From Desulfurococcaceae archaeon (GTDB lineage: Archaea; Thermoproteota; Thermoprotei_A; Sulfolobales; Desulfurococcaceae), in assembly GCA_038888155.1 (NCBI GenBank), contig JAWAJB010000033.1, positions 1 to 11,632 on the forward strand: 11,632 bases of DNA, read 5' to 3'. The translations under genes and the position numbers were made by a program. Below, one piece after another: positions 409 to 11,632 of the stretch. Each line of letters opens with the position of its first letter. Positions within the stretch are counted from its first letter, which is position 1. Under the pieces are notes generated by a model. It worked only from the letters and a program-made list of their open reading frames with translations, searched no databases and was not told where the DNA came from.

Positions 409-663
409 ATGGGGGCCGCCGTAATCCCCGTTAAGGTCAGAGCCAGGGGCGAGGTGGTGCTCAGGGCTTCAGTCGACACGGGCTTCTACGGCGACTTGAT
501 CGCCAGGCCCGAGGCTGTCGAGGGGGCGGGCGTCGAGCTGAAGCACGAGAGGGTGAGGGTGCTGCCCGACGGTGGCAGGGTGAGCGTGAAGTACGGGGTA
601 GGTGAGGTCAAGATCGAGGGGATGGTGACCGCCGCGGACGTGGAAGTCTGGGAGGGGTTGAAG
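409..663 (+). pseudogene. Clan AA (retropepsin-like, AF_0612-type) aspartic protease, N-terminal fragment interrupted by the island
   Basis: MGAAVIPVKV...ASVDTGFYGDL...RVLPDGGRV...VEVWEGLK has the catalytic DTG and a flap-like LPDG. After K85 the ORF runs into unrelated sequence (QRIVPLKRKRL..., stop at 717) and lacks the hydrophobic-hydrophobic-Gly motif. ATG 409 (or GTG 406) is preferred over the ORF-track start at 286. Confidence 0.75.
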
Positions 664-667
664 CAGC
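662..667 (+). repeat. Left copy of the 6-bp direct repeat AGCAGC at the island junction
   Basis: Identical AGCAGC at 10643-10648, in the same codon phase relative to the two protease fragments. Confidence 0.5.
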
Positions 668-1210
668 GAATTGTTCCTTTGAAGCGGAAGCGGCTGAGGG
701 TTTCCTCGCCGGGTTAAACGACAGCGGTGCTGTTAAGAGTCCCCTTGGAATATAAGTGTTGATGCTCAGGCTTCTTCCAACTGAGATAACATCATGAGAG
801 ATAATGTTGTCGAGGATAAACCCTTAGTCTTCGTTCAGGATGAAAGGAATGAATCGTTTGGGATGTTAAAGTAGGGCAGCTGATGGTTGTGAACTCTGGA
901 AATGTTTTAGTGGAGTCTTGACGGTAGTGAAAACGAGCCTAAAGGTTAGGATGTAAACTGAGGAATGATAGTTGTACGAAATTGGATGCTAGAAGACAAC
1001 ACAGTTAGAGTGTACGGGAAGAACCTGAGAATTGTGAGGATCATCAGTGACACGTGATCAAGGACACGAACGGAGTCTAGCTAAACTCCTTTACTAACAC
1101 GCGAATCTGTGGCAATTAGATTCAACCGCTATTCCTAACGAGGCTTGTGCGCAGGGTCGAGTATACCCTCATCGCTTGATCGGCTTACGGGCTGCGTAGG
1201 GCGTTAGTGC

Positions 1211-1233
1211 TTACATGCGACGTTCGTATGTAA
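1211..1233. repeat. Imperfect inverted repeat with 10-bp arms
   Basis: TTACATGCGA-CGT-TCGTATGTAA. The arms pair 9/10, and the mismatch would be a G-U pair in + strand RNA. Confidence 0.45.
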
Positions 1234-1673
1234 TCCTCTCCATCGATAGGGCAACGATTACCAACCGAAACGGAACGATAAAGATGCTTGGAGCTGGTAT
1301 ACGGATAGCAACTCACCAAGATGCTCAGCTTCACTACTGAAAAGCCCGTTGAAGCTGTCTAGGCCTGTGATGCAACGTGAAAGTTTCAAACAAGGAGGAG
1401 CCTGAAGTTGGCTGGTACATAGACAGAACCATAGCTGCCGTATAGCTGACTCCAATATCCTACGAAGACTTCTTCAACATGTACGCCTTCGACTATCACG
1501 AAATGAAAAGAGAACCTACTTTACGTCGCTAACCTTCAAAGCCGACAGCCCAGCTGCTTATGTCGCGTGATGAAACAGTTCCGATGTATACGTAAAGAAA
1601 TACATTGGCTTAATCTTATCGTATGAGTTCGCTGTAACTCTTAACCTTTACGCTTTTCTTCGCGGTATGCATT

Positions 1674-4595
1674 TTAAGTCTTTGTTACATTTTCCACATG
1701 TAAAAGTTGCATTTTAAGGCTCTGAGCTTTCTCTGGGTTTCTAATTATTTTGAAATTGTTAATAGAGTGAAGGCCAGAGAGATTCTGGCTCGTCTCTACT
1801 ACTATTTCATCGTCTATTATAATTAACTTATCATGCCTTTCTCTTATTGGATAGAGGTTAACCCCAGCTTGGCGAAGTAAATTTTCATATCTTTTTATAT
1901 TTTCTTCCCGCGTTAAAAGCGTTACCTGAATACCGCGTTCCACCACCTTTTTTAAAGCTTTAATTCCTTCATCATCTACGTAGGGAGATAGCACTACGAT
2001 TTCCCTCCTTGCTATTCTGAAGAGGGGATCGATAAGCTTCCAGCCTCTCCCGTATATCGTCTCCTGCCCTGACAATGCCTTCAGAACCCACATGACAAGG
2101 TTCCTGGATGTTTCTAGATTCTGAGTTAATGGACTTATGCAACCTTCGTCCAGCACCACGCACATAGTGCAACCATCTATGCAGTGAATGATGCTCATGT
2201 AATCCCTAACTATCGTGTCTAAGTGCCTTTGCAGCTTCGTATCATTCGTGATGCTGAGGGATGTTAAAACATCTTTTAAGGCATTGGACAGCACTAAATA
2301 ATACGTAAACGTTGGGACATCCATTACAATGTTTTGATCTACTAGATAGTTGTACCATTTTTCTTGCAGCTCTTCCGCAACCATTCTCAGAAGCTTCGTT
2401 GAGCCATCAAGCCTCTTGCTTATTTCGGTTAGGGTACGCTTCTTGTATTCGATTACCTCTTGCTCATGCTGATTTAGGCTCCTCTCCATAAAACTCATGA
2501 AGCTTTCGATCATTTGCTGGTAGGAGCCAAAGTAACTCAGCGCATGATCGGGCAGATCTATGACGCCATAGGGGCTATTCTCAAAGACTATAATCACAAG
2601 CTCATCATTTTCTCCATCGATAAAGCTCAGGTATGACAGATTCGCAGGTTCTATCTCCAAACTATTTGAGATATATGAGTAGAAAAGATGCGCTAACGTA
2701 TGGCCGAGCACTTCAAGAAGGTAGTTTATGAACTTTTCGATCAGAGATTCATCTTGTTTAATCTTTTGGTAGAATTCAGATATTTTTTTAGCTAATTTCT
2801 TTTTCTTTAGTTGAAGTATTCTTAATTGATAGTGTCCTTTACCTGTTAGATAGTAGTACATGAACTTAGATAGGAGGAGTTTATCAAGAGTAATCGAACG
2901 CTCCTTCTCGCCGACTACAAGCTTGACTCTTGGCTTAGGCGTAACGCTTTCATCAATCAATTCGGATAAAATAGCCTTCACTAGTGATAGTGGTAGACTA
3001 AAACCGATAGCATTAGTGCTGTATAATTCCTTAACTATAGGCTTCTCAAATTTTACTCGTACCAGGTTACCGAGAGATACTACAGTTGGCATGAACCATT
3101 GCGCTCCAACAATGTACTCAATGATTCGAATCCCATTACCTACTACCGGTGTAAACATCCCATTTGCTTTTTCATGTTTTAGACCCCTGCCTAGCACCTC
3201 TCTCTTTGATTCCACGTAAACTTTGGGGAATAATCTTCTCGATCTCGACCAATTTGGGCACTGCCCCGATCCTCTTTTTTGAAGAAAACTTCCGACATAA
3301 CAGTCTCTCATGAATGGACACCTGAAATCATATGGGTCCGTGGACATCGCATACCCTCTGTAGCAATACCAGACATAGCCAAGATCATTCACCCTGTAAG
3401 CTCTCCGCTTCAGCTTGCTCATCTGTTCAGCGTACTCTTTTTGTATTTCTTGGACTATCTGAGTGATATCAGCTTTCCTTTTAGCTTGCCATGATCGTAG
3501 CCTATTAAAGAGTTTCTTTGAACCATATTTAATCCATAAGTTACGGACCCCTCTAGGCCTTGCTGCTACGTTTGTTTTATCATCCTCTAAGATTATCTCG
3601 AGGTAAATCTCGTTAAGTTGATCGTTATGCATAAGGTTAATCGTTTCAACCTCAATAAGTCTCACACTATGAACCTGTTCTTCAGCATTCCCCCTTATAA
3701 CTACCTTATTCCGATCAGTAAAGGGGGCACCGGTAAATCTTACATTCTTTGAGGCGATAAACCACACGTTGCTGCCTATAATACCATTTACTTCGTCATG
3801 TATAGGTTCAAACGGGGGATACCTCATGAAAAGGACATCAAGGGGAAGCCTGTTTCTATCCTCGTCTACCTCAACCGGCTTTCCAGTAATTCTGAACGAT
3901 ACTTCTTGAGTTTGCAGCTCTCCTGAAATGCTCCGCAGTCCTGTCAATTGAGATATAAGTTCATGAACCCAAATGCCACTCCACACTAGCTCCTTCAGAA
4001 ATTTTGCAATATAAATAGCTCTCTCATGACTACTTAGAACCTTGCTCTGCAGTAATTTTTTAGACTCATCTCTTAATACATCCAAACAATTCGATATACG
4101 TTGACATTCTATATTAACATCCTCCAAAGATCTTAATGCGTTAGATACCTCATCAAACTTGCTGTAGGACTTGATTCTGTTTAACAGACTCTTAAGTTTG
4201 TTCATTGTGTTTTCGCAATCATCAATCAAAATAGAGAGACTTTCGTCAATAAGTCCAATGAGATTATTACTTTGTGATTTCACAACCGAGAATGGATCTG
4301 AATTTAAATAAAATATATTTAAAATATTTCGTATTTTTTCATTAAATCTATTGAAATATTCCATAAGATCACTTGATATACTTTTAACTTTTGCTGATTC
4401 AGGAATTTTTTCTAGTTCTTTTAAATTATCTACTAACTTTAATAATTTATCATTTAATTCAGAATGTATATAATCAAGAGCTCGGAATAAGCTGCAAAGA
4501 CTATCGGCTAAATCTAGATCGCTTTCTTCATCTAAGAGCTTTATTACTTCGCTAATCAAATCTTCGATTCTATTGATTTTATTTACAACTTTCAA
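1674..4595 (-). CDS. 973-aa fusion: N-terminal coiled-coil/helical region, DUF1998 (MZB-like Zn domain) and C-terminal PLD-family nuclease (DrmB+DrmC-like, or DpdJ C-terminus + DpdK-like)
   Basis: HTLAHL (H632), FENSPYG and C805-IDG-C809-TM-C812-x6-C819...N...SR fit DUF1998. IVVLSPYVD...GIQVTLLTR...H921-D-K-LIII-D928...TSQNL is a single HKD PLD motif. The TTG start follows an SD-like GGGTGAT. Confidence 0.85.
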   Translation of the reverse strand: MKVVNKINRIEDLISEVIKLLDEESDLDLADSLCSLFRALDYIHSELNDKLLKLVDNLKELEKIPESAKVKSISSDLMEYFNRFNEKIRNILNIFYLNSDPFSVVKSQSNNLIGLIDESLSILIDDCENTMNKLKSLLNRIKSYSKFDEVSNALRSLEDVNIECQRISNCLDVLRDESKKLLQSKVLSSHERAIYIAKFLKELVWSGIWVHELISQLTGLRSISGELQTQEVSFRITGKPVEVDEDRNRLPLDVLFMRYPPFEPIHDEVNGIIGSNVWFIASKNVRFTGAPFTDRNKVVIRGNAEEQVHSVRLIEVETINLMHNDQLNEIYLEIILEDDKTNVAARPRGVRNLWIKYGSKKLFNRLRSWQAKRKADITQIVQEIQKEYAEQMSKLKRRAYRVNDLGYVWYCYRGYAMSTDPYDFRCPFMRDCYVGSFLQKRGSGQCPNWSRSRRLFPKVYVESKREVLGRGLKHEKANGMFTPVVGNGIRIIEYIVGAQWFMPTVVSLGNLVRVKFEKPIVKELYSTNAIGFSLPLSLVKAILSELIDESVTPKPRVKLVVGEKERSITLDKLLLSKFMYYYLTGKGHYQLRILQLKKKKLAKKISEFYQKIKQDESLIEKFINYLLEVLGHTLAHLFYSYISNSLEIEPANLSYLSFIDGENDELVIIVFENSPYGVIDLPDHALSYFGSYQQMIESFMSFMERSLNQHEQEVIEYKKRTLTEISKRLDGSTKLLRMVAEELQEKWYNYLVDQNIVMDVPTFTYYLVLSNALKDVLTSLSITNDTKLQRHLDTIVRDYMSIIHCIDGCTMCVVLDEGCISPLTQNLETSRNLVMWVLKALSGQETIYGRGWKLIDPLFRIARREIVVLSPYVDDEGIKALKKVVERGIQVTLLTREENIKRYENLLRQAGVNLYPIRERHDKLIIIDDEIVVETSQNLSGLHSINNFKIIRNPEKAQSLKMQLLHVENVTKT

Positions 4596-4600
4596 ACAAC

Positions 4601-4607
4601 ATCACCC
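4601..4607 (-). promoter_or_regulatory. SD-like GGGTGAT overlapping the helicase stop codon
   Basis: Minus strand reads AAT GGG TGA TGT TGT TTG AAA. GGTGA is the canonical archaeal SD core and lies about 6 nt before the TTG, suggesting translational coupling. Confidence 0.55.
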
Positions 4608-6842
4608 ATTTATTTCTTTTATCTCTACAAGAATATTGTTCAAAAACTCCTTAATCTCATTGATGTCATTCAACCTTTTTCTGCTCGCATACGTGTGCTC
4701 CCCCTTCAACGCGAGGGAAGCTATAGCTTCAACGAGTTTTCTACGATCCTCTATCTGAGGATTACCCTGTGTGACAAAAAGCCTGAAACTTGCGCTGGGT
4801 TCCAGGTTCAAAAGCGACTCCGAGTAAGCCTTATCATAGAGGAGAAACGCCTCTGAGATTGTTGCTCTTGCAAGGATTATTCCTAGGACGGTTCTCATGG
4901 TTTTAATGCTGCGTCCCCCCCTGCCAAGCCGCTGTAGCAGCGATATGGGGTTCTCTAAGCCAGAGTTCAATATGAAAGTTACACCTCCGTAATCAACACC
5001 CAACTCGAGAGATGAAGTGGAGAGGGCAACCAAATTTTCATCACTTTTCAGCCTGCTTATGTTCCGAGTCCTTTCACTCACATCTAGCTCGCTCAACATG
5101 AGAACCAGCCTATTTTCGAGCTCGCTGCACAGCTCTAATCTCTCTACTTTCCGTCGAACCTCCGCTCTGAGCTGTGGTGGGATGTAGTGCCAATAGCAGA
5201 ATGGATCTGTCGCACTAAGCTCAGGGCTTAGATGGTCTTTCGGCTCACCTAGTGACAAGTTGTTTAAGAAACCACTGCGTACGCGCTTAAGCTCCCTGAT
5301 GTTATTAACAAAGAGAACACTCTGTATAGCTGGTGTTGAACGGTATTTTTCTTTGCGCAGCGCAAAACAGTAGCTAAGGAATGTTGTAAGAACGAGCCAA
5401 AGCTGACAGTATGTGTTCCAGGAGAATAGCGGGTTCATGCTGAAGAGACCTAGTAGAACCAGTCTCCTCCCAGATATCGCATTCTCACCGTGAATCTTAT
5501 CAACATCATTGTAGCTGATTACCTGAAGTTGATCCTTAGGCACGTCGGTCAGCTTTGAGGCAAAATCGTCTGGTTGAGGAATAGTCGCTGATGAAAGGAT
5601 TATACGTAGGTCAGCTTCACCTTTTTGTGAAGCCCTCCTCACGTATCGCACTATGTCGAGTAGAGCGTTGAAAAGCCCCCCTCCTAAACCCTTGTATTCG
5701 TGTGCTTCATCAATCACGATGAGTTCGACTTCACTCATTGTTCTTACGTTAACGTCACTTTGGTTACTATCCATCAGCCTTATCTCAAGGGACCATGGGT
5801 TAACGGCTATAATGTCGGCTTCTGCGGCTTGTTCACGTGTTGCTTTTATAAAATCGAAAGAAGTTTTACAACTATTGCAGACAACTGTAAACTTTCCATT
5901 CTGGAGCTTTAAAATTAGCTTATCTGTACAGATCGGGCACGTAGTTCCACGGAAAACCAAAGCAGCTTGCCTAGCGATTTCCCTTTGAAGATCGATTTGC
6001 CGTGGAGTATCACCATCTCTTATGGCAAAATTGAAGGTAACATTATGATTCGAAGATATATAGAGGAGCTTGATAATGCGGTTTGCTTGATCCACTGTAA
6101 GAGCCTTCCTAGGATATATGAGTAAAACCCTGCTAGCTCTACGGTGAATATACCGCTGCTTCATGAGCCACGCTAAAACGTATGTCAGGAAGATCTCCGT
6201 TTTTCCACTCCCCGTCGGAGCCACCAGAACATAAGCGCTTTTTCTGGACCTTAGAAGCTCGCTCAACGCCAACGCTTGATATGCATCAAGGTAGGGAACG
6301 AACTGCCCCGCTATACGCATAAACAATAAAGCCAGATCCGCACGCCCCTTGAAGAATTGGTATATAGTTTTCACTAAGTCACTATACGCAGGATAAAGTG
6401 GATCATCGGTTTCTAGAGAAGCTTGAGGGTTAAATGGTATTCGTCTATCATTTTGGGTTGGCGTTTTCACAAAGTTGAATGCCAGTTTCGTGGAAATGAG
6501 GTAGCTGGTCGTATCGTATGCTGTTCGAATCTCGGAACTTCTACAAAGCACATCCATATGAAGACTTCTGTACCCTAGCTCATCATCGTCCGTCTCGAAA
6601 GATCCACTGAGAGGTATCAAGAATCCCCTTTCCAGCAACTCATTGAAGATCTGCTGAGCATCTCTGCCGAAGTCACGTGCTAAGAATCTGATAATGTCCT
6701 CCTTGTGCACTGTGTACCTAGGTTCGCTTATGGTATACCATATTCCTTCTTTCACCGATTTTTGATTTACCGCACGGGGGATCTCAAGCTGTGTAATTAT
6801 CTGATGATAGGCCCTGGTCAGCTCTTCTTCATTCATTTTCAA
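4602..6842 (-). CDS. SF2 DEAH-box helicase with C4 Zn-finger insert (DpdJ/DrmA/YprA-Hrq1-related group); true start may be ATG 6836
   Basis: Q motif LDAYQ, Walker A APTGSGKT, Ia YPRKAL..DQ, DGDTP, II DEAH (5700-5711), III SAT, IV LFVNN, V STSSLELGVD and VI QRLGRGGR are all present. C302-x2-C-x16-C-x2-C325 is inserted in RecA1. Confidence 0.92.
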   Translation of the reverse strand: MKMNEEELTRAYHQIITQLEIPRAVNQKSVKEGIWYTISEPRYTVHKEDIIRFLARDFGRDAQQIFNELLERGFLIPLSGSFETDDDELGYRSLHMDVLCRSSEIRTAYDTTSYLISTKLAFNFVKTPTQNDRRIPFNPQASLETDDPLYPAYSDLVKTIYQFFKGRADLALLFMRIAGQFVPYLDAYQALALSELLRSRKSAYVLVAPTGSGKTEIFLTYVLAWLMKQRYIHRRASRVLLIYPRKALTVDQANRIIKLLYISSNHNVTFNFAIRDGDTPRQIDLQREIARQAALVFRGTTCPICTDKLILKLQNGKFTVVCNSCKTSFDFIKATREQAAEADIIAVNPWSLEIRLMDSNQSDVNVRTMSEVELIVIDEAHEYKGLGGGLFNALLDIVRYVRRASQKGEADLRIILSSATIPQPDDFASKLTDVPKDQLQVISYNDVDKIHGENAISGRRLVLLGLFSMNPLFSWNTYCQLWLVLTTFLSYCFALRKEKYRSTPAIQSVLFVNNIRELKRVRSGFLNNLSLGEPKDHLSPELSATDPFCYWHYIPPQLRAEVRRKVERLELCSELENRLVLMLSELDVSERTRNISRLKSDENLVALSTSSLELGVDYGGVTFILNSGLENPISLLQRLGRGGRSIKTMRTVLGIILARATISEAFLLYDKAYSESLLNLEPSASFRLFVTQGNPQIEDRRKLVEAIASLALKGEHTYASRKRLNDINEIKEFLNNILVEIKEING

Positions 6843-6861
6843 CTATTTTCGTGGGATTAAC

Positions 6862-6878
6862 TAAATAAAAATTTTTTG
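6862..6878 (-). promoter_or_regulatory. Putative BRE/TATA promoter for the helicase and DUF1998/PLD genes
   Basis: Minus strand reads CAAAAAATTTTTATTTA, an A-rich BRE followed by TTTATTTA ending 26 nt before ATG 6836. Confidence 0.55.
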
Positions 6879-6928
6879 CCAAGATTAGTTTTAAGGCCTC
6901 CTTAATTCTCCATCGAAGCTGAGAGCCC

Positions 6929-8389
6929 CTACATGATGTATCCAAGGGCAAATTTTGTCGCTAGATTCAGGTTCATGCTGAACGCTCTAGCCCAAACGTA
7001 AGAATAATCCCTTAACTTACAATAAATCTTGCGAAGAGTTTGATCTTTTTCAAACATTGTAATAAGCTCAAAGTCTATATTTATATTTTTTCCTTCAGCT
7101 TTTGAAATTATATCTATTATATTCCAAATCGATTTAAATATTTTATCTGTAGGAATATTATCTAAAGTAGCCATGGTAATCAAGGGAGGAGAAAGATAAT
7201 ACTTGAAACTCTCGCGCAAATAGAAGAATTCTTCGAGAGGGGATGAAAAAACATCGATAGTTTGACTCTGTAGTAGATTTTCAGCTCTTGACCTGTGAAC
7301 GATTCTTTGTATTTCGCTTAGAAAGCCGCTTCTTGCACGCTCAAAGGATTTTACATCACAACATAGCGCTGGGTAAATCTCTCTTCGACGTTTCCCGTCT
7401 AAATTAACTCTCCAAGGCTCTCCCACTACAGCCGCTATCTCAACGTCAAAAGGAATGGAAAGTTCTGAGTACACAAGAAAGTACCCACGATTTAGATTAA
7501 ACGGATAGCTCAGTAGGTAGGGATGGTCCCGATCGTTGAAAATAAAGATACCAGAAAAATAAGCTATTAGATCATTATTTTTTAAGGAATAAAAAAGATG
7601 CGTAAAATCTCCAAACTTCTGATCGAGAGGAATGGCTATGGGGAACGGGCCTATTTCCGAAAAATGAAAGTTGCTACTGATTGGTGTACAGCTTATTAAG
7701 TTACCTTTTATGATTGCTACCCTAATCCATTCTTCAGAAATATTTAATTTTTTCACTTCCATGCTTCGCGAGTAAAGATGAACAAGCACGGCTGATGGAG
7801 ATGCCCATGCGCGAACATCGGATCCGTTAGAGACATAATGGTATGCAAACATTGAAAGAGGTGAAGGTATTACTGCAGAAATATTGCGCCTAAAAGTTAT
7901 AGCATAAGGCCTTATCAAACCCAGAAAAGCACTAATACACAATTGAAGATTACTCAAATTCTCGCTTTCTATCTTGCCGAAGGTTACGAATGAGCCTAGC
8001 AGTTCCTCTGCGATCTGTGTTGCATCTTCTCTACACCTTTGTAGTTTTTCAAATTTAAATGAATCCCTCTCATCAAGTCTACCTACGTTTCCAGAGAATC
8101 TAATAGCCCTTATGACACCAAGCTCTGGGAATATCACAGGAAAATAATTAATTAATGTTCGGTATACATCGTACCCTAAACTATCTTTAATTAGAAAACT
8201 ATGCCATAGCTTAAATGAATAGCGGGGGAAAGGTCGCAAACCGTGTACTACCGTACTACCAACGTGCCTCTCTATCAATTCATCAATGATTTTAGACACA
8301 GATATGACATAGCTTGATGTCTTGTTCAACGTCTCTAGCGCTGCATTGAGACCACTTCCGTAATTTGTAAGCATGGGACCGGGATTCAT
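6929..8389 (-). CDS. Hypothetical protein, 486 aa, no recognised motif
   Basis: Long ATG-started ORF in AT-rich DNA, co-oriented with and 86 nt upstream of the helicase. It is aromatic-rich with no obvious signal peptide. Confidence 0.8.
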   Translation of the reverse strand: MNPGPMLTNYGSGLNAALETLNKTSSYVISVSKIIDELIERHVGSTVVHGLRPFPRYSFKLWHSFLIKDSLGYDVYRTLINYFPVIFPELGVIRAIRFSGNVGRLDERDSFKFEKLQRCREDATQIAEELLGSFVTFGKIESENLSNLQLCISAFLGLIRPYAITFRRNISAVIPSPLSMFAYHYVSNGSDVRAWASPSAVLVHLYSRSMEVKKLNISEEWIRVAIIKGNLISCTPISSNFHFSEIGPFPIAIPLDQKFGDFTHLFYSLKNNDLIAYFSGIFIFNDRDHPYLLSYPFNLNRGYFLVYSELSIPFDVEIAAVVGEPWRVNLDGKRRREIYPALCCDVKSFERARSGFLSEIQRIVHRSRAENLLQSQTIDVFSSPLEEFFYLRESFKYYLSPPLITMATLDNIPTDKIFKSIWNIIDIISKAEGKNINIDFELITMFEKDQTLRKIYCKLRDYSYVWARAFSMNLNLATKFALGYIM

Positions 8390-8414
8390 GTATTAGCGTT
8401 TTATTTTACTTTTT

Positions 8415-8425
8415 CTCTTTAAGCA
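8415..8425. promoter_or_regulatory. Candidate shared TATA element in the 55-bp divergent intergenic region
   Basis: CTCTTTAAGCA reads TTTAAG on + (27 nt before TTG 8445) and TTAAAG on - (about 30 nt before ATG 8389). Confidence 0.4.
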
Positions 8426-8444
8426 ACACTCATAAACTAGAATT

Positions 8445-10280
8445 TTGTATATCGGTTGTGTGCTTCTAGACTCGCTCCCGGATATGGTTGTAGCGAAAGC
8501 TGTTGAGTTGTCTTCCCGTGAAAAAGCAAGGCGCTTACCGATCCATATGGTCCACAGGTGGTGGTCACGTCGGTTTGCGGCTGTCTACAGGATGCTCCTC
8601 GCAGCCTATCTTTACGACGATGCTGAAACGATCCTTCGCGCTATCGAAGAACCCTGGACGATGCGTTCTAAGGCGAGGGGAAGGGTCTTCTTTGAGCCGA
8701 TGATGGGTGGAGGCACGGGCCTAGCGGAGGCTGTGCTCGCCGGCTGGGATGCTTACGGAGTAGACGTGAATCCCGTCGCTGTCCTCGCGGCGAGAGCGAG
8801 CTTATTCATCGCCGCCAAGGGTCTGCCCAGCGACTTCGAGAGGACGGTTACAGAGATCCTCGATGCAGCTTTCTCTAGCGTAAGGGAGCTGTGGAGTTAT
8901 AACGGCGGCATCGTCTGCCACATCTTCGTCTCTCGGGGTAAAGCTCCTACATGGCTGTCCTTTAACAGGGGGAGGCTCGTCCTGTTATGCCCCAACTGCT
9001 ACACGATCTTCGAGAACGATAGCAGTCCCACCTCCTGCCCCTCGTGCGGTGATAGGGTGGAAGCCTCCATGGAGCCCGTTATCGATCTGCCACCGGGTTT
9101 ACCGGAGGAAGCGCCGAACTGGAGGGCTTTCGCCATCGAATTGAGGGTATTGAGTAACGAGCGTTGGAAGAAGAGCTACGTCAGCGCCGTAAAGGACCCA
9201 CAGCTCTGCAGATGGCTCTCAATTACAGCCGCGGTAGCCCGCGAGAAAGCGGTCACAGCAGTGGAGGCCATTAAGGAAGTTTTGGAAGTAGAGGAGCACG
9301 ACCGTCTCTGGCGCGCGGGGATTAACTACTCGTATGAGCTGTTTACCCCGAGGCAGTTAGTCAGCTTTCAAGCCTACGCGAGAGCTGCGCGAAGGTTCGA
9401 GAGGATAAACCCAGCGTTGCTCGCCGCGGCAGCGAGCGAAGCCGCAAAGAGCTGCTGTCTGCTCGCCAAGTGGTACCCTAAGCTGGGCGAGATTGTGCCG
9501 GCTGGAGGGGTGAAGGCACACTGGGTTCCCGAGTACACTGCAGCAGCAAACCCCTTGGCCCACGCTGGGCTAACCCCCCTCGCGAGAGGGGTTATCGCAT
9601 CTTCTCTTCGAGCGCAACTGCGTGCTAACCGGTATGTCCAGAAAGCAGGCGGCCCCAGCCGCGCGAAATGGGTTGCAGCCACAGGCGACGCGTGTGAAGC
9701 AGCCCTTCCTAGTTCCATAGACCTGGCGGTCTTAGACCCGCCGTACGGGAGAGTGAAAAGCTACGCTTCGCTGAGCGCACCCCACTTCTACGCCCTGAAA
9801 CTCTTTGAAGCAGCAGCGGGGCTCCAGCTTACAGACCATATAGCGCTCAAAGATGTCGAAGCCCGCGAAGCGACGCCGAGGACGAGCACCTTCCACCAGG
9901 TGATCGAGCGCATAGCCGAGAGAGTGGCCGTGCGCTTGAGGGAGAAAGGGCGAATCGTGCTCATGTATAACGCATTAGGCTTCGAAGAGTGGGTGAAAAT
10001 GCTTAGCGTTTTTAGAAACATGAACCTCCACCCCCAAGCTGTGTACTGGGTGCTCGGCGAACCCCCGAGTGGCATCACCACCTCAAGGCTTAAGGGGATG
10101 CACCTCATCGTCTTCGCTAAGAAGCCACAGGCACAAGTGCACATCGTCTACGATGAACCATTACACTCAGCGGAACGGATAGCAAATTTGAACGAAGAGC
10201 TAGAGGGGCATGCGAACAGAAACTTGATACGTGCGCTAAAGCAGATCTATTCTGTCGTGCCCGGATATGAGATCTATTAA
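8445..10280 (+). CDS. DUF1156-type amino (probably N6-adenine) DNA methyltransferase
   Basis: N-terminal REK..R.PI...HRWWSRR is the DUF1156-like signature. Motif I is FFEPMMGGGTG and motif II is GVDVNPVA, followed by a CPNC...CPSC Zn ribbon and catalytic DPPY (9735-9746). Motif I precedes motif IV with a long intervening region. Start could be TTG 8445 or GTG 8460. Confidence 0.88.
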   Translation: MYIGCVLLDSLPDMVVAKAVELSSREKARRLPIHMVHRWWSRRFAAVYRMLLAAYLYDDAETILRAIEEPWTMRSKARGRVFFEPMMGGGTGLAEAVLAGWDAYGVDVNPVAVLAARASLFIAAKGLPSDFERTVTEILDAAFSSVRELWSYNGGIVCHIFVSRGKAPTWLSFNRGRLVLLCPNCYTIFENDSSPTSCPSCGDRVEASMEPVIDLPPGLPEEAPNWRAFAIELRVLSNERWKKSYVSAVKDPQLCRWLSITAAVAREKAVTAVEAIKEVLEVEEHDRLWRAGINYSYELFTPRQLVSFQAYARAARRFERINPALLAAAASEAAKSCCLLAKWYPKLGEIVPAGGVKAHWVPEYTAAANPLAHAGLTPLARGVIASSLRAQLRANRYVQKAGGPSRAKWVAATGDACEAALPSSIDLAVLDPPYGRVKSYASLSAPHFYALKLFEAAAGLQLTDHIALKDVEAREATPRTSTFHQVIERIAERVAVRLREKGRIVLMYNALGFEEWVKMLSVFRNMNLHPQAVYWVLGEPPSGITTSRLKGMHLIVFAKKPQAQVHIVYDEPLHSAERIANLNEELEGHANRNLIRALKQIYSVVPGYEIY

Positions 10281-10642
10281 AGCAGTTCTTCGTAACGTAA
10301 GATAAATCAATAAGTAAAGCTTTACGCACGTGCAATCAAATCTATTTGTTAAAAAAGGTTTTACTAATTTCATGAACTATAGATATTCTCTAAAGTATCA
10401 TACTATAACATACTCCTAACTTTTATTCTAGAAAAGTAACATATCTTTTCTATATACATTTGTTTAAAATTTTATTAATTCAACATTTTGTTATAGAATC
10501 TTGCCAATTCAAGGATTCAGGAGCTGCAAGATGTTTCGCCTTACGATTAAGCTCCATTGATCGATACGCTCGATCCCATTGGTTAACTCGGCCGCGATAT
10601 TAACACTGCTCAAGGCACCCTAGGTATCCATACTAAATTTCG

Positions 10643-10648
10643 AGCAGC
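10643..10648 (+). repeat. Right copy of the 6-bp direct repeat AGCAGC at the island junction
   Basis: Matches 662-667 and coincides with the switch back to GC-rich DNA. Confidence 0.5.
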
Positions 10649-10677
10649 TGGAGAGGGTGGAGCTGTACCTGCTGTGA
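10645..10677 (+). pseudogene. Probable C-terminal tail of the interrupted aspartic protease
   Basis: CAG CTG GAG AGG GTG GAG CTG TAC CTG CTG TGA encodes QLERVELYLL*. It has host-like codons and resembles the ending I recall for AF_0612-type proteases (...DP.TG.LE...LYLL). Confidence 0.6.
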
Positions 10678-10811
10678 AGCAGGAGTCCGAGACCGCAGCT
10701 GGGGTGCGCTGCCGGCGGGGTTGACGAGCGGCGCGAGGAGCCACGCTCTTCGATCACTCTATGCTGGTAGCTGCTCGAGAGCCGGGCGCTGAGACGCTAC
10801 GCTACCTTCCT

Positions 10812-10831
10812 TGCACCTACCTCTAGGTGCA
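10812..10831. repeat. Perfect inverted repeat with 8-bp arms
   Basis: TGCACCTA-CCTC-TAGGTGCA, intergenic. Confidence 0.45.
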
Positions 10832-10905
10832 CCCGGGCTTTACCCATGCACCAGCCGGGAGCAGCCTCGGCGAGGGTGCTTTACAGGCTCTGAGGCTACG
10901 CTGGC

Positions 10906-10919
10906 GCGAAGTTTATTAA
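10906..10919 (+). promoter_or_regulatory. BRE + TATA box for the RHH gene
   Basis: GCGAAG-TTTATTAA ends 25 nt before ATG 10944, in otherwise GC-rich DNA. Confidence 0.7.
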
Positions 10920-10943
10920 CGGTGGTAAAAAGTATTACAGAGT

Positions 10944-11207
10944 ATGACCACTGTTAAGGTGAGTATAAGCCTCCCGGAGGATCTCTTGAAGAGGGTGGAC
11001 GCCCTCTGCAGGCAGCTGAAGATGTCGAGGAGCGAGTTCATAGCGAGGGCTCTGGAGGAGAAGCTGAGGGCGGGCGAGAAGGGCTCCAGGTACCCCACGG
11101 TTTTGTGGAAGCTGAGCACGACCGGCTACCTCAGGCTTAGGTCCCCGCGGCTCCGCGGCAGGTCGATCAGGGAGGGGTGGATCGTCGAGGAGGTTGAAGA
11201 GGGGTAA
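10944..11207 (+). CDS. Ribbon-helix-helix (CopG/MetJ/Arc family) DNA-binding protein
   Basis: MTTVKVSISLPEDLLKRVDALCRQLKMSRSEFIARALEEKL is a classic beta-strand plus two helices with SRSE. Confidence 0.9.
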   Translation: MTTVKVSISLPEDLLKRVDALCRQLKMSRSEFIARALEEKLRAGEKGSRYPTVLWKLSTTGYLRLRSPRLRGRSIREGWIVEEVEEG

Positions 11208-11632
11208 GGATCAGCTACCTCTACGCCGAGGACGGTTACACCGATCGCGGGGAGAAAATACCGGATGTTCCGGTCGTCTACCTCGCCGTTAGGGTGGGCA
11301 GGCGCCGGGCGCGCGGGCCAGCAATCATCGACACGGGCTTCGACGGCGGCATCTACGCTAATTTAGAGATCGCGAGGATGTTCGAGGGGGTTGAGCCGGT
11401 GGACAGGGTTCTCTTCGAGAACCCCCTCTACGGTGCCTCCGAGTTCGAAGTATACGTGGCGGAAGCCTCCCTCTACCACGGCGCCAGCCGCGTGGACCTC
11501 GGCAAGGTCAGGGTCTACATCCCCACCGAGCCGGAGCTCCTGACAGGAGAGGTACTGGTGGGCAGAGAGCTTCTGAACAGCAAGGTGAAGACGCTGACAC
11601 TCGACATGCTAGAGAGGAGAGTAATCCTCGAG
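11204..11632 (+). CDS. Clan AA (retropepsin-like) aspartic protease, runs off the 3' end; start codon anomalous
   Basis: Not in the ORF track. The frame reads VRISYLYAEDGY...PVVYLAVRVGRRRARGPAIIDTGFDGGI...EVLVGRELLNSKVKTLTLD..., with both the DTG and LVGR motifs. There is an in-frame TGA at 11195, and the first canonical start is GTG 11294. Confidence 0.8.

Follow-up and report, generated by a model that had tools for sequence, protein, structure and literature searches.

A four-gene helicase, nuclease and methylase cassette from hot-spring archaea that reads as a compact relative of DISARM

Introduction

Contig JAWAJB010000033.1 of a Desulfurococcaceae archaeon (assembly GCA_038888155.1), 11,632 bp long and here called the window in its whole length, carries four long genes that encode a helicase of 746 amino acids (aa), a 973-aa protein in which a helicase partner is fused to a PLD nuclease, a 611-aa DNA methyltransferase, and a 486-aa protein of a new family. 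We propose, with a probability of about 0.6, that these genes form a methylation-linked helicase-nuclease defence cassette of hyperthermophilic archaea which, by analogy, would follow the plan of DISARM with different parts. Archaeal defence against viruses beyond CRISPR is poorly charted, and the mechanism of DISARM is still debated, notably in the roles of its nuclease and of methylation. With its nuclease joined covalently to the helicase partner, the cassette speaks for PLD cutting as an integral part of this branch, and the family of the 486-aa protein represents a new component.

The window is the entire contig (label C33 in source bin G000, which has 2.42 Mb in 134 contigs). A sequence-only reading of it had described four intact-looking genes, three of them on the minus strand and a methylase gene diverging from them across 55 bp, and had considered them a candidate restriction-like system. 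ORF (open reading frame) calling returned the same four ORFs and the same gap at exactly these positions:

1674-4595, minus strand: gene for the PLD fusion and helicase partner, 973 aa
4602-6842, minus strand: helicase gene, 746 aa, with a likely true start at the ATG at 6836
6929-8389, minus strand: gene for the fourth component, 486 aa
8390-8444, no strand: intergenic region separating the divergent 486-aa and methylase genes, 55 bp, AT-rich as read from the sequence
8445-10280, plus strand: DNA methyltransferase gene, 611 aa

The helicase ATG at 6836 agrees with the consensus start of the family, and the fusion gene begins with a TTG located 6 nucleotides (nt) past the helicase stop. The 55-bp region is the probable site of both promoters, to judge from TATA-like runs picked out by eye.

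A co-inherited unit of four genes

The recurrence of the four genes had been set beforehand as the test on which the idea of a single system would stand or fall, and the idea stood: most loci are complete, and the divergence of the genes is correlated. We examined 54 loci around relatives of the fusion protein (7 from genomes and 47 from metagenomes), labelling their ORFs by tblastn and iterated hidden Markov models (HMMs). All four genes are present as called ORFs at 36 of the 54 loci, and L029 is a 37th complete locus, in which the frame of the fourth gene is open and uncalled as an ORF (the fourth gene also went uncalled in L027). With the exception of L003 and L006, every incomplete locus breaks off at a contig end where the missing gene would lie; for instance, in L020 the first 134 residues of the methylase lie at the last bases of the contig. 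The fusion protein has relatives in 33 other clusters, and the carriers are named by their sources as Thermofilum, Infirmifilum uzonense, Thermofilum adornatum, Ignisphaera aggregans and one Caldisericum bin, the longest contig with the Infirmifilum uzonense fusion protein reaching 1,611,988 bp.

Once identical copies were dropped, 25 complete non-redundant cassettes remained, the window included, and their content is constant across at least five gene orders. At most loci the methylase is divergent and upstream of the helicase, but it is also found downstream on the same strand (L013, L015, L017, L021 and L037), upstream on the same strand (L022, L023, L026 and L029), and downstream on the opposite strand (L041, L045 and L046), and the 486-aa gene comes first in the window, in L008 and on contig C57 of the window's own bin. 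That contig holds a second full copy of the cassette, 42-62% identical to the first.

Across the 25 cassettes, the pairwise identities of the helicase, the fusion protein and the 486-aa protein correlate with r=0.96-0.97, and those of the methylase correlate with the other three at r=0.69-0.74, or at 0.91-0.94 when L022 and L026 are left out; the correlations serve as description only, since pairs of relatives are non-independent. A distant paralogue (21-22% identity) stands in for the methylase in L022 and L026, where the other three genes are typical; thus, the methylase has been replaced in these loci, not lost. Pairwise identity averages 0.49 in the helicase, 0.43 in the methylase, 0.38 in the fusion protein and 0.30 in the 486-aa protein, which is the fastest-evolving of the four. 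We consider it highly probable that the four genes are inherited together as one unit.

A PLD nuclease domain on the chain of the probable helicase partner

The 973-aa protein contains the following parts:

aa 4-218, nt 3936-4595, minus strand: N-terminal helical bundle, with five long helices in the AlphaFold (AF2) model
aa ~225-620, nt ~2736-3923, minus strand: beta-rich, Zn-site and long-hairpin region in the AF2 model
C805-C819, nt 2139-2183, minus strand: DUF1998-like 4-Cys cluster, in a region that also holds H632/H636
aa ~845-966, nt 1677-2063, minus strand: PLD nuclease, with the HKD motif at nt 1812-1835

The AF2 model is confident (predicted local distance difference test, pLDDT, 83.4; predicted template modelling score, pTM, 0.84) and runs from the helices at 4-218 through a beta-rich stretch at 231-358, a Zn site formed by C411/C426/C432/C446 and two very long hairpins at 481-535 to a helical part with the invariant H632/H636, strands at 653-672, a helical insert, the Cys cluster and a PLD fold at 847-966. 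Conserved sequence identifies this last part as a putative single-HKD PLD nuclease, which is what the sequence-only reading had placed there. PLDc_2 matches residues 862-941 with E=1.2e-8 (35.3 bits against a cut-off of 27) and is found in 19 of 19 fusion members, in all of which H921, K923, D928 and N938 are invariant. Furthermore, Foldseek aligns the PLD part with Nuc (1byr; E 2e-5, TM(target) 0.68) and with Zucchini, so that both the HxK(x)4D signature and the fold of the PLD superfamily (Nuc/Zucchini) are present.

The same protein had also been given the label DUF1998, which proved weaker than that reading suggested. Its invariant Cys cluster reads C805-D807-G808-C809-C812-C819 and is accompanied by the H-x3-H motif at H632/H636; hhalign against 30 archaeal MrfA-like MZB C-termini gave P=1.3e-4 and 2.7e-4, aligning the Cys cluster only; and 9 of 10 rows of its structural neighbours in the ESM Atlas bear MZB, including an archaeal PLD cluster with MZB in 27% of its members, a result that we take as a lead, not a test. 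In spite of these motifs and neighbours, no DUF1998 (MZB) family model matched. The profile of the fusion family returned only PLD matches and coiled-coil noise from the PDB sequences, the PADLOC model of DrmB gave no match, and those of DrmC stayed low (0.005 in PADLOC; 12.2 bits against a cut-off of 133 for DrmC_I in NCBIfam).

A stronger argument for the partnership of helicase and fusion protein than this direct DUF1998 evidence is provided by G104, a complete genome from the same order, in which helicase, partner and nuclease form a single chain. Its uninterrupted 1677-aa ORF (L120:5392-10425, on G104:C1) joins a homologue of the helicase (29% identity, E 4e-78) to a homologue of the fusion protein (24%, E 2e-30); behind it lie a 453-aa gene and a methylase homologue. 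The HKD motif of this ORF has six residues before the Asp, not four.

The layout of the 973-aa protein matches that of the canopy of YprA helicases, made up of the oligonucleotide/oligosaccharide-binding (OB) fold, the connector and DUF1998, and by this architecture it appears to supply the helicase canopy in trans, as DrmB does for DrmA. With a canopy-like part and a single-HKD PLD domain at its end, it can be regarded as the analogue of a DrmB-DrmC fusion, and because the PLD domain sits on the same chain, the nuclease would be tethered to the motor and not be a separate protein like DrmC.

The helicase, the methylase and the 486-aa protein

The motifs of the helicase and the methylase lie at these positions:

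nt 6198-6221, minus strand: helicase Walker A, A208-T215
nt 5868-5939, minus strand: helicase Zn-ribbon insert in RecA1, C302, C305, C322 and C325
nt 5700-5711, minus strand: helicase DEAH, D378/E379/H381
nt 8697-8717, plus strand: methylase motif I, near the N-terminus
nt 8988-9050, plus strand: methylase Zn ribbon, between motif I and DPPY
nt 9735-9746, plus strand: methylase DPPY, 340 residues past motif I

The assignment of a DEAH helicase was borne out by Pfam (DEAD 5e-19, ResIII and Helicase_C) and by Walker A, D378/E379/H381, SAT and motif VI, which are invariant in 25 members. In PADLOC, DpdJ matches at 1.7e-24 over about 260 of 1487 positions and DrmA at 1.5e-14, also partially; the NCBIfam DpdJ model (NF041067), whose cut-off is 800 bits, scores 69.5, and the best matches among PDB sequences are a 2108-aa DEAD/DEAH helicase (9tu7) and YprA (6znp). 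With its RecA1/RecA2 core, ATPase motifs and affinity to YprA, DrmA, DpdJ and also DruE, the 746-aa protein is, as far as sequence comparison goes, a YprA/DrmA/DpdJ-like core of helicase superfamily 2 (SF2). No MZB or Cys-cluster region was found in it, and the C-terminal part made up of OB fold, connector and DUF1998 is absent.

The methylase was rightly recognised as such, since P85 and G88-T91 of motif I and D431-P-P-Y434 are invariant in 25 members, as are W39/W40/R43. The DPPY motif indicates N6-adenine methylation, and the protein is probably an N6-adenine enzyme. As for its designation as DUF1156-type, the matches are sub-threshold and the conserved patches colinear, but the Pfam and NCBIfam scores fall under their cut-offs: Pfam DUF1156 gives 16.7 bits (cut-off 24) and NCBIfam DUF1156_antiphage (NF042963) 3.8e-6 and 25.3 bits (cut-off 1000). 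PADLOC matches MTase_II at 3e-7 and DUF1156_MTase at 0.007. Among the 25 members, Pfam finds UPF0020 in 22, MethyltransfD12 in 11, N6_N4_Mtase in 6 and DUF1156 in 4. An invariant W-W-x-x-R patch lies at the DUF1156 position, and BLASTP against a canonical 1011-aa DUF1156 methylase gives E=0.015 with the patches in colinear order. The enzyme thus appears to be related to the DUF1156-type N6/N4 methylases, from which it differs in its compact size and divergent sequence.

The 486-aa protein proved as much of an orphan as it had been called, with no match in Pfam, PADLOC (E<=0.1) or NCBIfam and no recurring Pfam match among the members of its family (0/30). This is a small new family: among 1.84 billion proteins, 51 representatives reach E<=1e-3, and it has no detectable relatives outside such cassettes. 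In the AF2 model (pLDDT 86.8, pTM 0.88), a beta-rich fold is joined to a helical bundle at the C-terminus. Foldseek found nothing at E<=1e-3 in PDB and BFVD; the top matches, all above that value, are tandem OB-fold binders of single-stranded DNA (ssDNA), namely RPA, SSB, LEF-3, HIN and PriB. Our best guess, which we hold with low confidence, is that the protein may be an OB-fold ssDNA-binding sensor or adaptor. Complex prediction with residues 1-225 and 840-973 of the fusion protein gave a score of 0.00, which speaks neither for nor against binding. An identity as a Cas8-type large subunit, put forward by the language-model score of the Atlas (0.91-0.93), was rejected for want of support elsewhere; no Cas family was found for the protein by Pfam (0/30 members) or PADLOC, and the Foldseek lists hold no Cas8. 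The structure rows of the Atlas for this protein were set aside, its model being poor (pLDDT 0.27).

Wider family and distribution

Among the more distant relatives, sub-group B (L049-L052 and G057) has a 748-aa fusion protein that lacks the N-terminal bundle and is preceded by a separate helical gene of 162-181 aa. By position and size only, a fission of the bundle is suggested; hhalign between the bundle and these small genes gave a probability of 15%. In sub-group B and in L004, the fusion gene stands beside a gene of 405-424 aa whose product aligns with the 486-aa protein at 92.7% probability (hhalign, E 4e-7), and on this evidence we classify these products as distant homologues of the 486-aa protein.

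Sub-group C (L003, L005, L006 and contig C13 of the window's own bin) combines an Eco57I-like methylase of 1006-1170 aa and an Lhr/BrxHI-like helicase with a YprA-like helicase, a PLD fusion and a short methylase. Its helicase matches DrmA at 8.7e-33 and its PLD protein matches DrmC at 1.9e-12, both better than the proteins of the window do, and the sub-group links the window cassette to class-1-like DISARM and ARMADA layouts.

Relatives of the fusion protein at E<=1e-9 occur in 6 of 200 other species genomes of the order, none above 29% identity, and within the genus of the window there is no strong match outside G000 and one weak match, in G130 (E 8.6e-4). The methylase query matches 18 other genomes and adjoins helicase or PLD genes in G187 (at a contig end), G104, G127, G166, G057 and G054. 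Solitary methylases of ~600 aa were observed at L114, L115, L116, L118 and L119 (in G116, G051, G177, G153 and G135, respectively); at L114, L115 and L118, a gene of 339-345 aa lies directly upstream on the same strand and could be a different restriction partner. The cassette of L021 has as its neighbours, at L021:4-4703, a DUF1156 methylase of the canonical kind (1011 aa, PF06634 1.6e-9) and a DUF499 ATPase (3e-101), which give it a defence-island context. The overall distribution is defence-like, the cassette being rare in the order and patchy, and the island that holds it apparently strain-variable.

A candidate strain-variable island and its flanks

The surroundings of the cassette in the window are as follows:

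662-10643, no strand: candidate limits of a strain-variable island of ~10 kb, comprising the four genes and two ORF-poor spacers
718-1673 and 10281-10943, no strand: ORF-poor spacers with a guanine-plus-cytosine content (GC) of about 0.45, between the cassette and the GC-rich flanks

DNA nearly identical to the window is present in hot-spring metagenomes of several studies. Contigs from three independent studies cover 632-9788, 7725-10685 and 7014-8788 and cross the junctions; therefore, the boundary at which the AT-richer genes meet the GC-rich methylase gene is not an assembly artefact. Other metagenome contigs, from three runs of three studies, join position 661 directly to 10644, with short sides to the joint (30-67 nt) and a sequence unlike the window beyond 10710. 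The depth of this joined form is 133, 610 and 15, against about 8, 109 and 5.5 within the island, i.e. 3 to 17 times higher. Given this greater depth, the island looks like a strain-variable insertion, present in a minority, that breaks into ORF 286-717 at its 3′ end. There is a GC step at its borders, and a repeat search found no terminal repeats at its limits; the sole flank-to-flank repeat, of 21 nt (473-493 and 11328-11348), lies within two paralogous ORFs. Scans of the window for tRNAs and Rfam families gave no match, the two spacers included.

The flanking small genes (3-254, 286-717, 10944-11207 and 11294-11632) are of toxin-antitoxin type. They encode a nucleotidyltransferase (NTP_transf_2, 6.5e-11) and a ribbon-helix-helix (RHH)/CopG protein (2.6e-10), each followed by one of the two paralogous ORFs, which have a D-T-G motif and no Pfam match. 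In two runs, contigs part from the window within the methylase gene, at position 9792, where depth also climbs (9792-9871); a sequence more abundant in those two communities shares part of this stretch. In metatranscriptome run X12, short contigs at 3198-3390, 6010-6249, 7533-7816, 8129-8319 and 8544-8827 touch all four genes with 0-12 differing letters each; carry-over of DNA is possible, and hence they are no proof of transcription.

In the window, the GC of the methylase gene is 0.568, against 0.38-0.45 in its three partners. A GC gradient inside the cassette is also seen in L009, L015, L016, L017, L024 and L028, and in GC-rich backgrounds the methylase reaches 0.57-0.66 (with up to 0.80 at third codon positions), the PLD fusion stays at ~0.38-0.40, and the helicase and 486-aa genes lie between. 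The gradient persists despite the co-divergence of all four genes, and gene-specific constraints on composition or different rates of amelioration are possible causes. As regards the source, bin G000 looks like a mixture: its 2.42 Mb compare with 1.3-1.5 Mb in genomes of the same genus, its contamination is 6.4%, and its contig GC is bimodal. Because the GC of the window's flanks (0.61-0.65) exceeds the bin's 99th percentile (0.534), the contig may be mis-binned.

Proposed mechanism and alternative explanations

If the cassette works as we propose, the methylase, to judge from its motifs, would mark host DNA, and the 746-aa motor core would act together with the canopy supplied by the 973-aa protein. 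By analogy with DrmAB, as described in an excerpt of the DISARM literature (PMC9142583), the complex might load on the single-stranded or 5′-overhang DNA of an invader, translocate with ATP, and cut DNA that lacks the host mark. Two copies of the PLD domain would have to pair to form one active site, as in known Nuc-type PLD nucleases, and the 486-aa protein would be a fourth subunit specific to the family. More tentatively, and with less confidence than in this general scheme, we suggest that the cassette could belong to a distinct, unnamed class of YprA-helicase defence confined to hyperthermophiles, in which the nuclease is carried on the canopy, a new OB-fold family senses viral or plasmid ssDNA and licenses cutting, and self DNA is protected by a co-inherited compact DUF1156-like adenine methylase that can be replaced by a paralogue.

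Several observations weigh against the proposed scheme. The matches listed by Foldseek for the whole fusion model in the PDB are all to PLD domains; Pfam MZB (PF09369) is found in none of 33 fusion proteins (0/19 close and 0/14 distant ones) and nowhere in the window at E<=1; and the hhalign match to MZB spans about 45-50 residues at a probability of 41-53%. The role suggested for the 486-aa protein draws on Foldseek matches that are all above E=1e-3, and loci L003 and L006 of sub-group C have no 486-aa gene. In addition, 5 genomes have a solitary methylase subfamily (about 30% identity) with no helicase or PLD gene nearer than about 10 kb, so that methylases of this kind can work alone. Finally, DISARM itself can do without DrmC and tells self from non-self by more than methylation, according to the same excerpt (PMC9142583), and for that reason the analogy may not carry over.

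Part of this evidence would fit two separate things brought together at one locus, namely a three-gene helicase-nuclease module that would tell invading DNA by its structure alone and a methylase with another restriction function or none. The solitary subfamily points in that direction, as do the higher GC of the methylase gene in the window and at several GC-rich loci, the swapped methylases of L022 and L026, and the reported ability of DISARM to restrict phages without methylation sites (PMC9142583, in the part used here). However, no locus of sufficient length lacks the methylase, its divergence follows that of the other three genes (r=0.91-0.94), and where it was lost a paralogue has taken its place, a place that is kept through five gene orders; we consider such a separation of functions unlikely. 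A selfish module of addiction or island maintenance, in which a pair resembling restriction-modification would mainly stabilise the ~10-kb island and not act against viruses, is less probable again. The presence of the island in a minority of the population, the toxin-antitoxin-type genes of the flanks (nucleotidyltransferase and RHH) and the patchy distribution would suit such a module, but no integrase, transposase or terminal repeat was found in the window, no relatives were found among IMG/VR viral contigs or PLSDB plasmids, and its molecular mechanism would equal the one that we propose.

The kinship of the helicase with YprA and MrfA raises the question of whether the genes encode a housekeeping DNA-repair helicase and nuclease of the MrfA/MrfB type. 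We regard this as very improbable: the bin already has a canonical 764-aa MrfA-like gene on contig C1 (MZB 58 bits), this type of gene is near-universal in several families (59/151 genomes) but the cassette is rare, and the cassette is linked to a methylase and has a PLD nuclease, not an exonuclease. Least credible of all is a system of the Dpd kind, with 7-deazaguanine as the DNA mark. It is true that DpdJ is the best single match of the helicase in both PADLOC and NCBIfam, but the NCBIfam score is far below its cut-off, as given above, and the 4-Cys cluster that is lost in canonical Dpd, according to an excerpt of Bell et al. (PMC12458937), is kept in the fusion protein. Moreover, DpdA/B/C, transglycosylase and preQ0-pathway genes are found neither in the window nor among the conserved neighbours of the 54 loci, a methylase being present instead; since deazaguanine genes are lacking, the cassette is not a Dpd system.

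Should our preferred scheme of a methylation-linked helicase-nuclease defence hold, the cassette would offer a simpler, thermostable complex for structural and biochemical study. Methylome and genetic tests would be feasible if the named carriers are cultured species, which we take Infirmifilum uzonense, Thermofilum adornatum and Ignisphaera aggregans to be.

Comparison with known systems

A literature search on the themes of DISARM, DUF1998, DUF1156 and PLD fusions in archaea, the supplements of surveys being outside its scope, did not find the four-gene set described. It had been foreseen that a full match to the model of an existing named system would remove the novelty of the cassette; the best PADLOC matches are partial, and no PADLOC or NCBIfam model of a named system matched at full length, with no match at all for DrmB, DrmE and DrmMI. 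The resemblance to DISARM and Dpd that the sequence-only reading had noted is real, given the partial matches of DpdJ, DrmA and DrmC. Its statement that the locus has no SNF2, DUF499, C5-methylase or TGT/DpdA gene also agrees with our results, as none was found among the ORFs of the window.

We use DISARM as it is defined in excerpts of two sources (PMC9142583, PMC12458937), that is, DrmA, DrmB and DrmC with either DrmD and DrmMI or DrmE and DrmMII. As in DISARM, the helicase gene of the cassette is apart from its canopy partner, and DrmA models match it partially, the affinity being drawn from these model matches; the two also have in common a PLD nuclease, a DNA methylase and an additional gene without an assigned role. 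In contrast to DISARM, in which DrmC is stand-alone, the partner and nuclease of the cassette form one polypeptide with an added N-terminal bundle; its methylase is compact and DUF1156-like and matches neither DrmMI nor DrmMII, whereas those of DISARM are PglX-like N6A or C5 enzymes; and it has no SNF2/DrmD, while its fourth protein matches no DrmE model. The cassette therefore departs from DISARM in its nuclease, its methylase, its auxiliary gene and its scores against all model cut-offs. With Dpd, it shares a helicase closest to DpdJ models and paired with a PLD nuclease (DpdK in Dpd). However, the canopy of DpdJ is described by Bell et al., in the part cited here, as fused and its Cys cluster as lost (PMC12458937), whereas the canopy of the cassette is split off, its cluster is kept, and a methylase is present.

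Sub-group C also resembles the cassette, with a PLD fusion (23-25% identity), a helicase (about 30%) and a short methylase that are all homologous to those of the window, although it adds another large helicase together with a large type IIG-like methylase and has no 486-aa gene. The DUF1156-DUF499 systems, termed BREX-related in an excerpt of their description (PMC12839542), resemble it in the colinear motif patches of their methylase, but the cassette has no DUF499 ATPase, and its methylase has ~600 aa instead of ~1000 and lies far below the NF042963 cut-off. MrfA/YprA (PDB 6znp) belongs to the same helicase family and also has a 4-Cys Zn domain after a beta connector; unlike the cassette helicase, MrfA is a single chain that works with the exonuclease MrfB and without a methylase or PLD domain.

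In the parts of their text that concern these proteins, Bell et al. state that YprA helicases carry an OB-connector-DUF1998 canopy which DISARM encodes separately as DrmB, that DISARM is the only YprA branch with a consistent split between helicase and canopy, and that many classes within the DISARM-like clade are uncharacterised (PMC12458937), the last of these being the nearest to a description of the cassette that our literature search found. Set beside these descriptions, and as far as its sequences can tell, the cassette reads as an unnamed, compact DISARM-like relative in hot-spring archaea.

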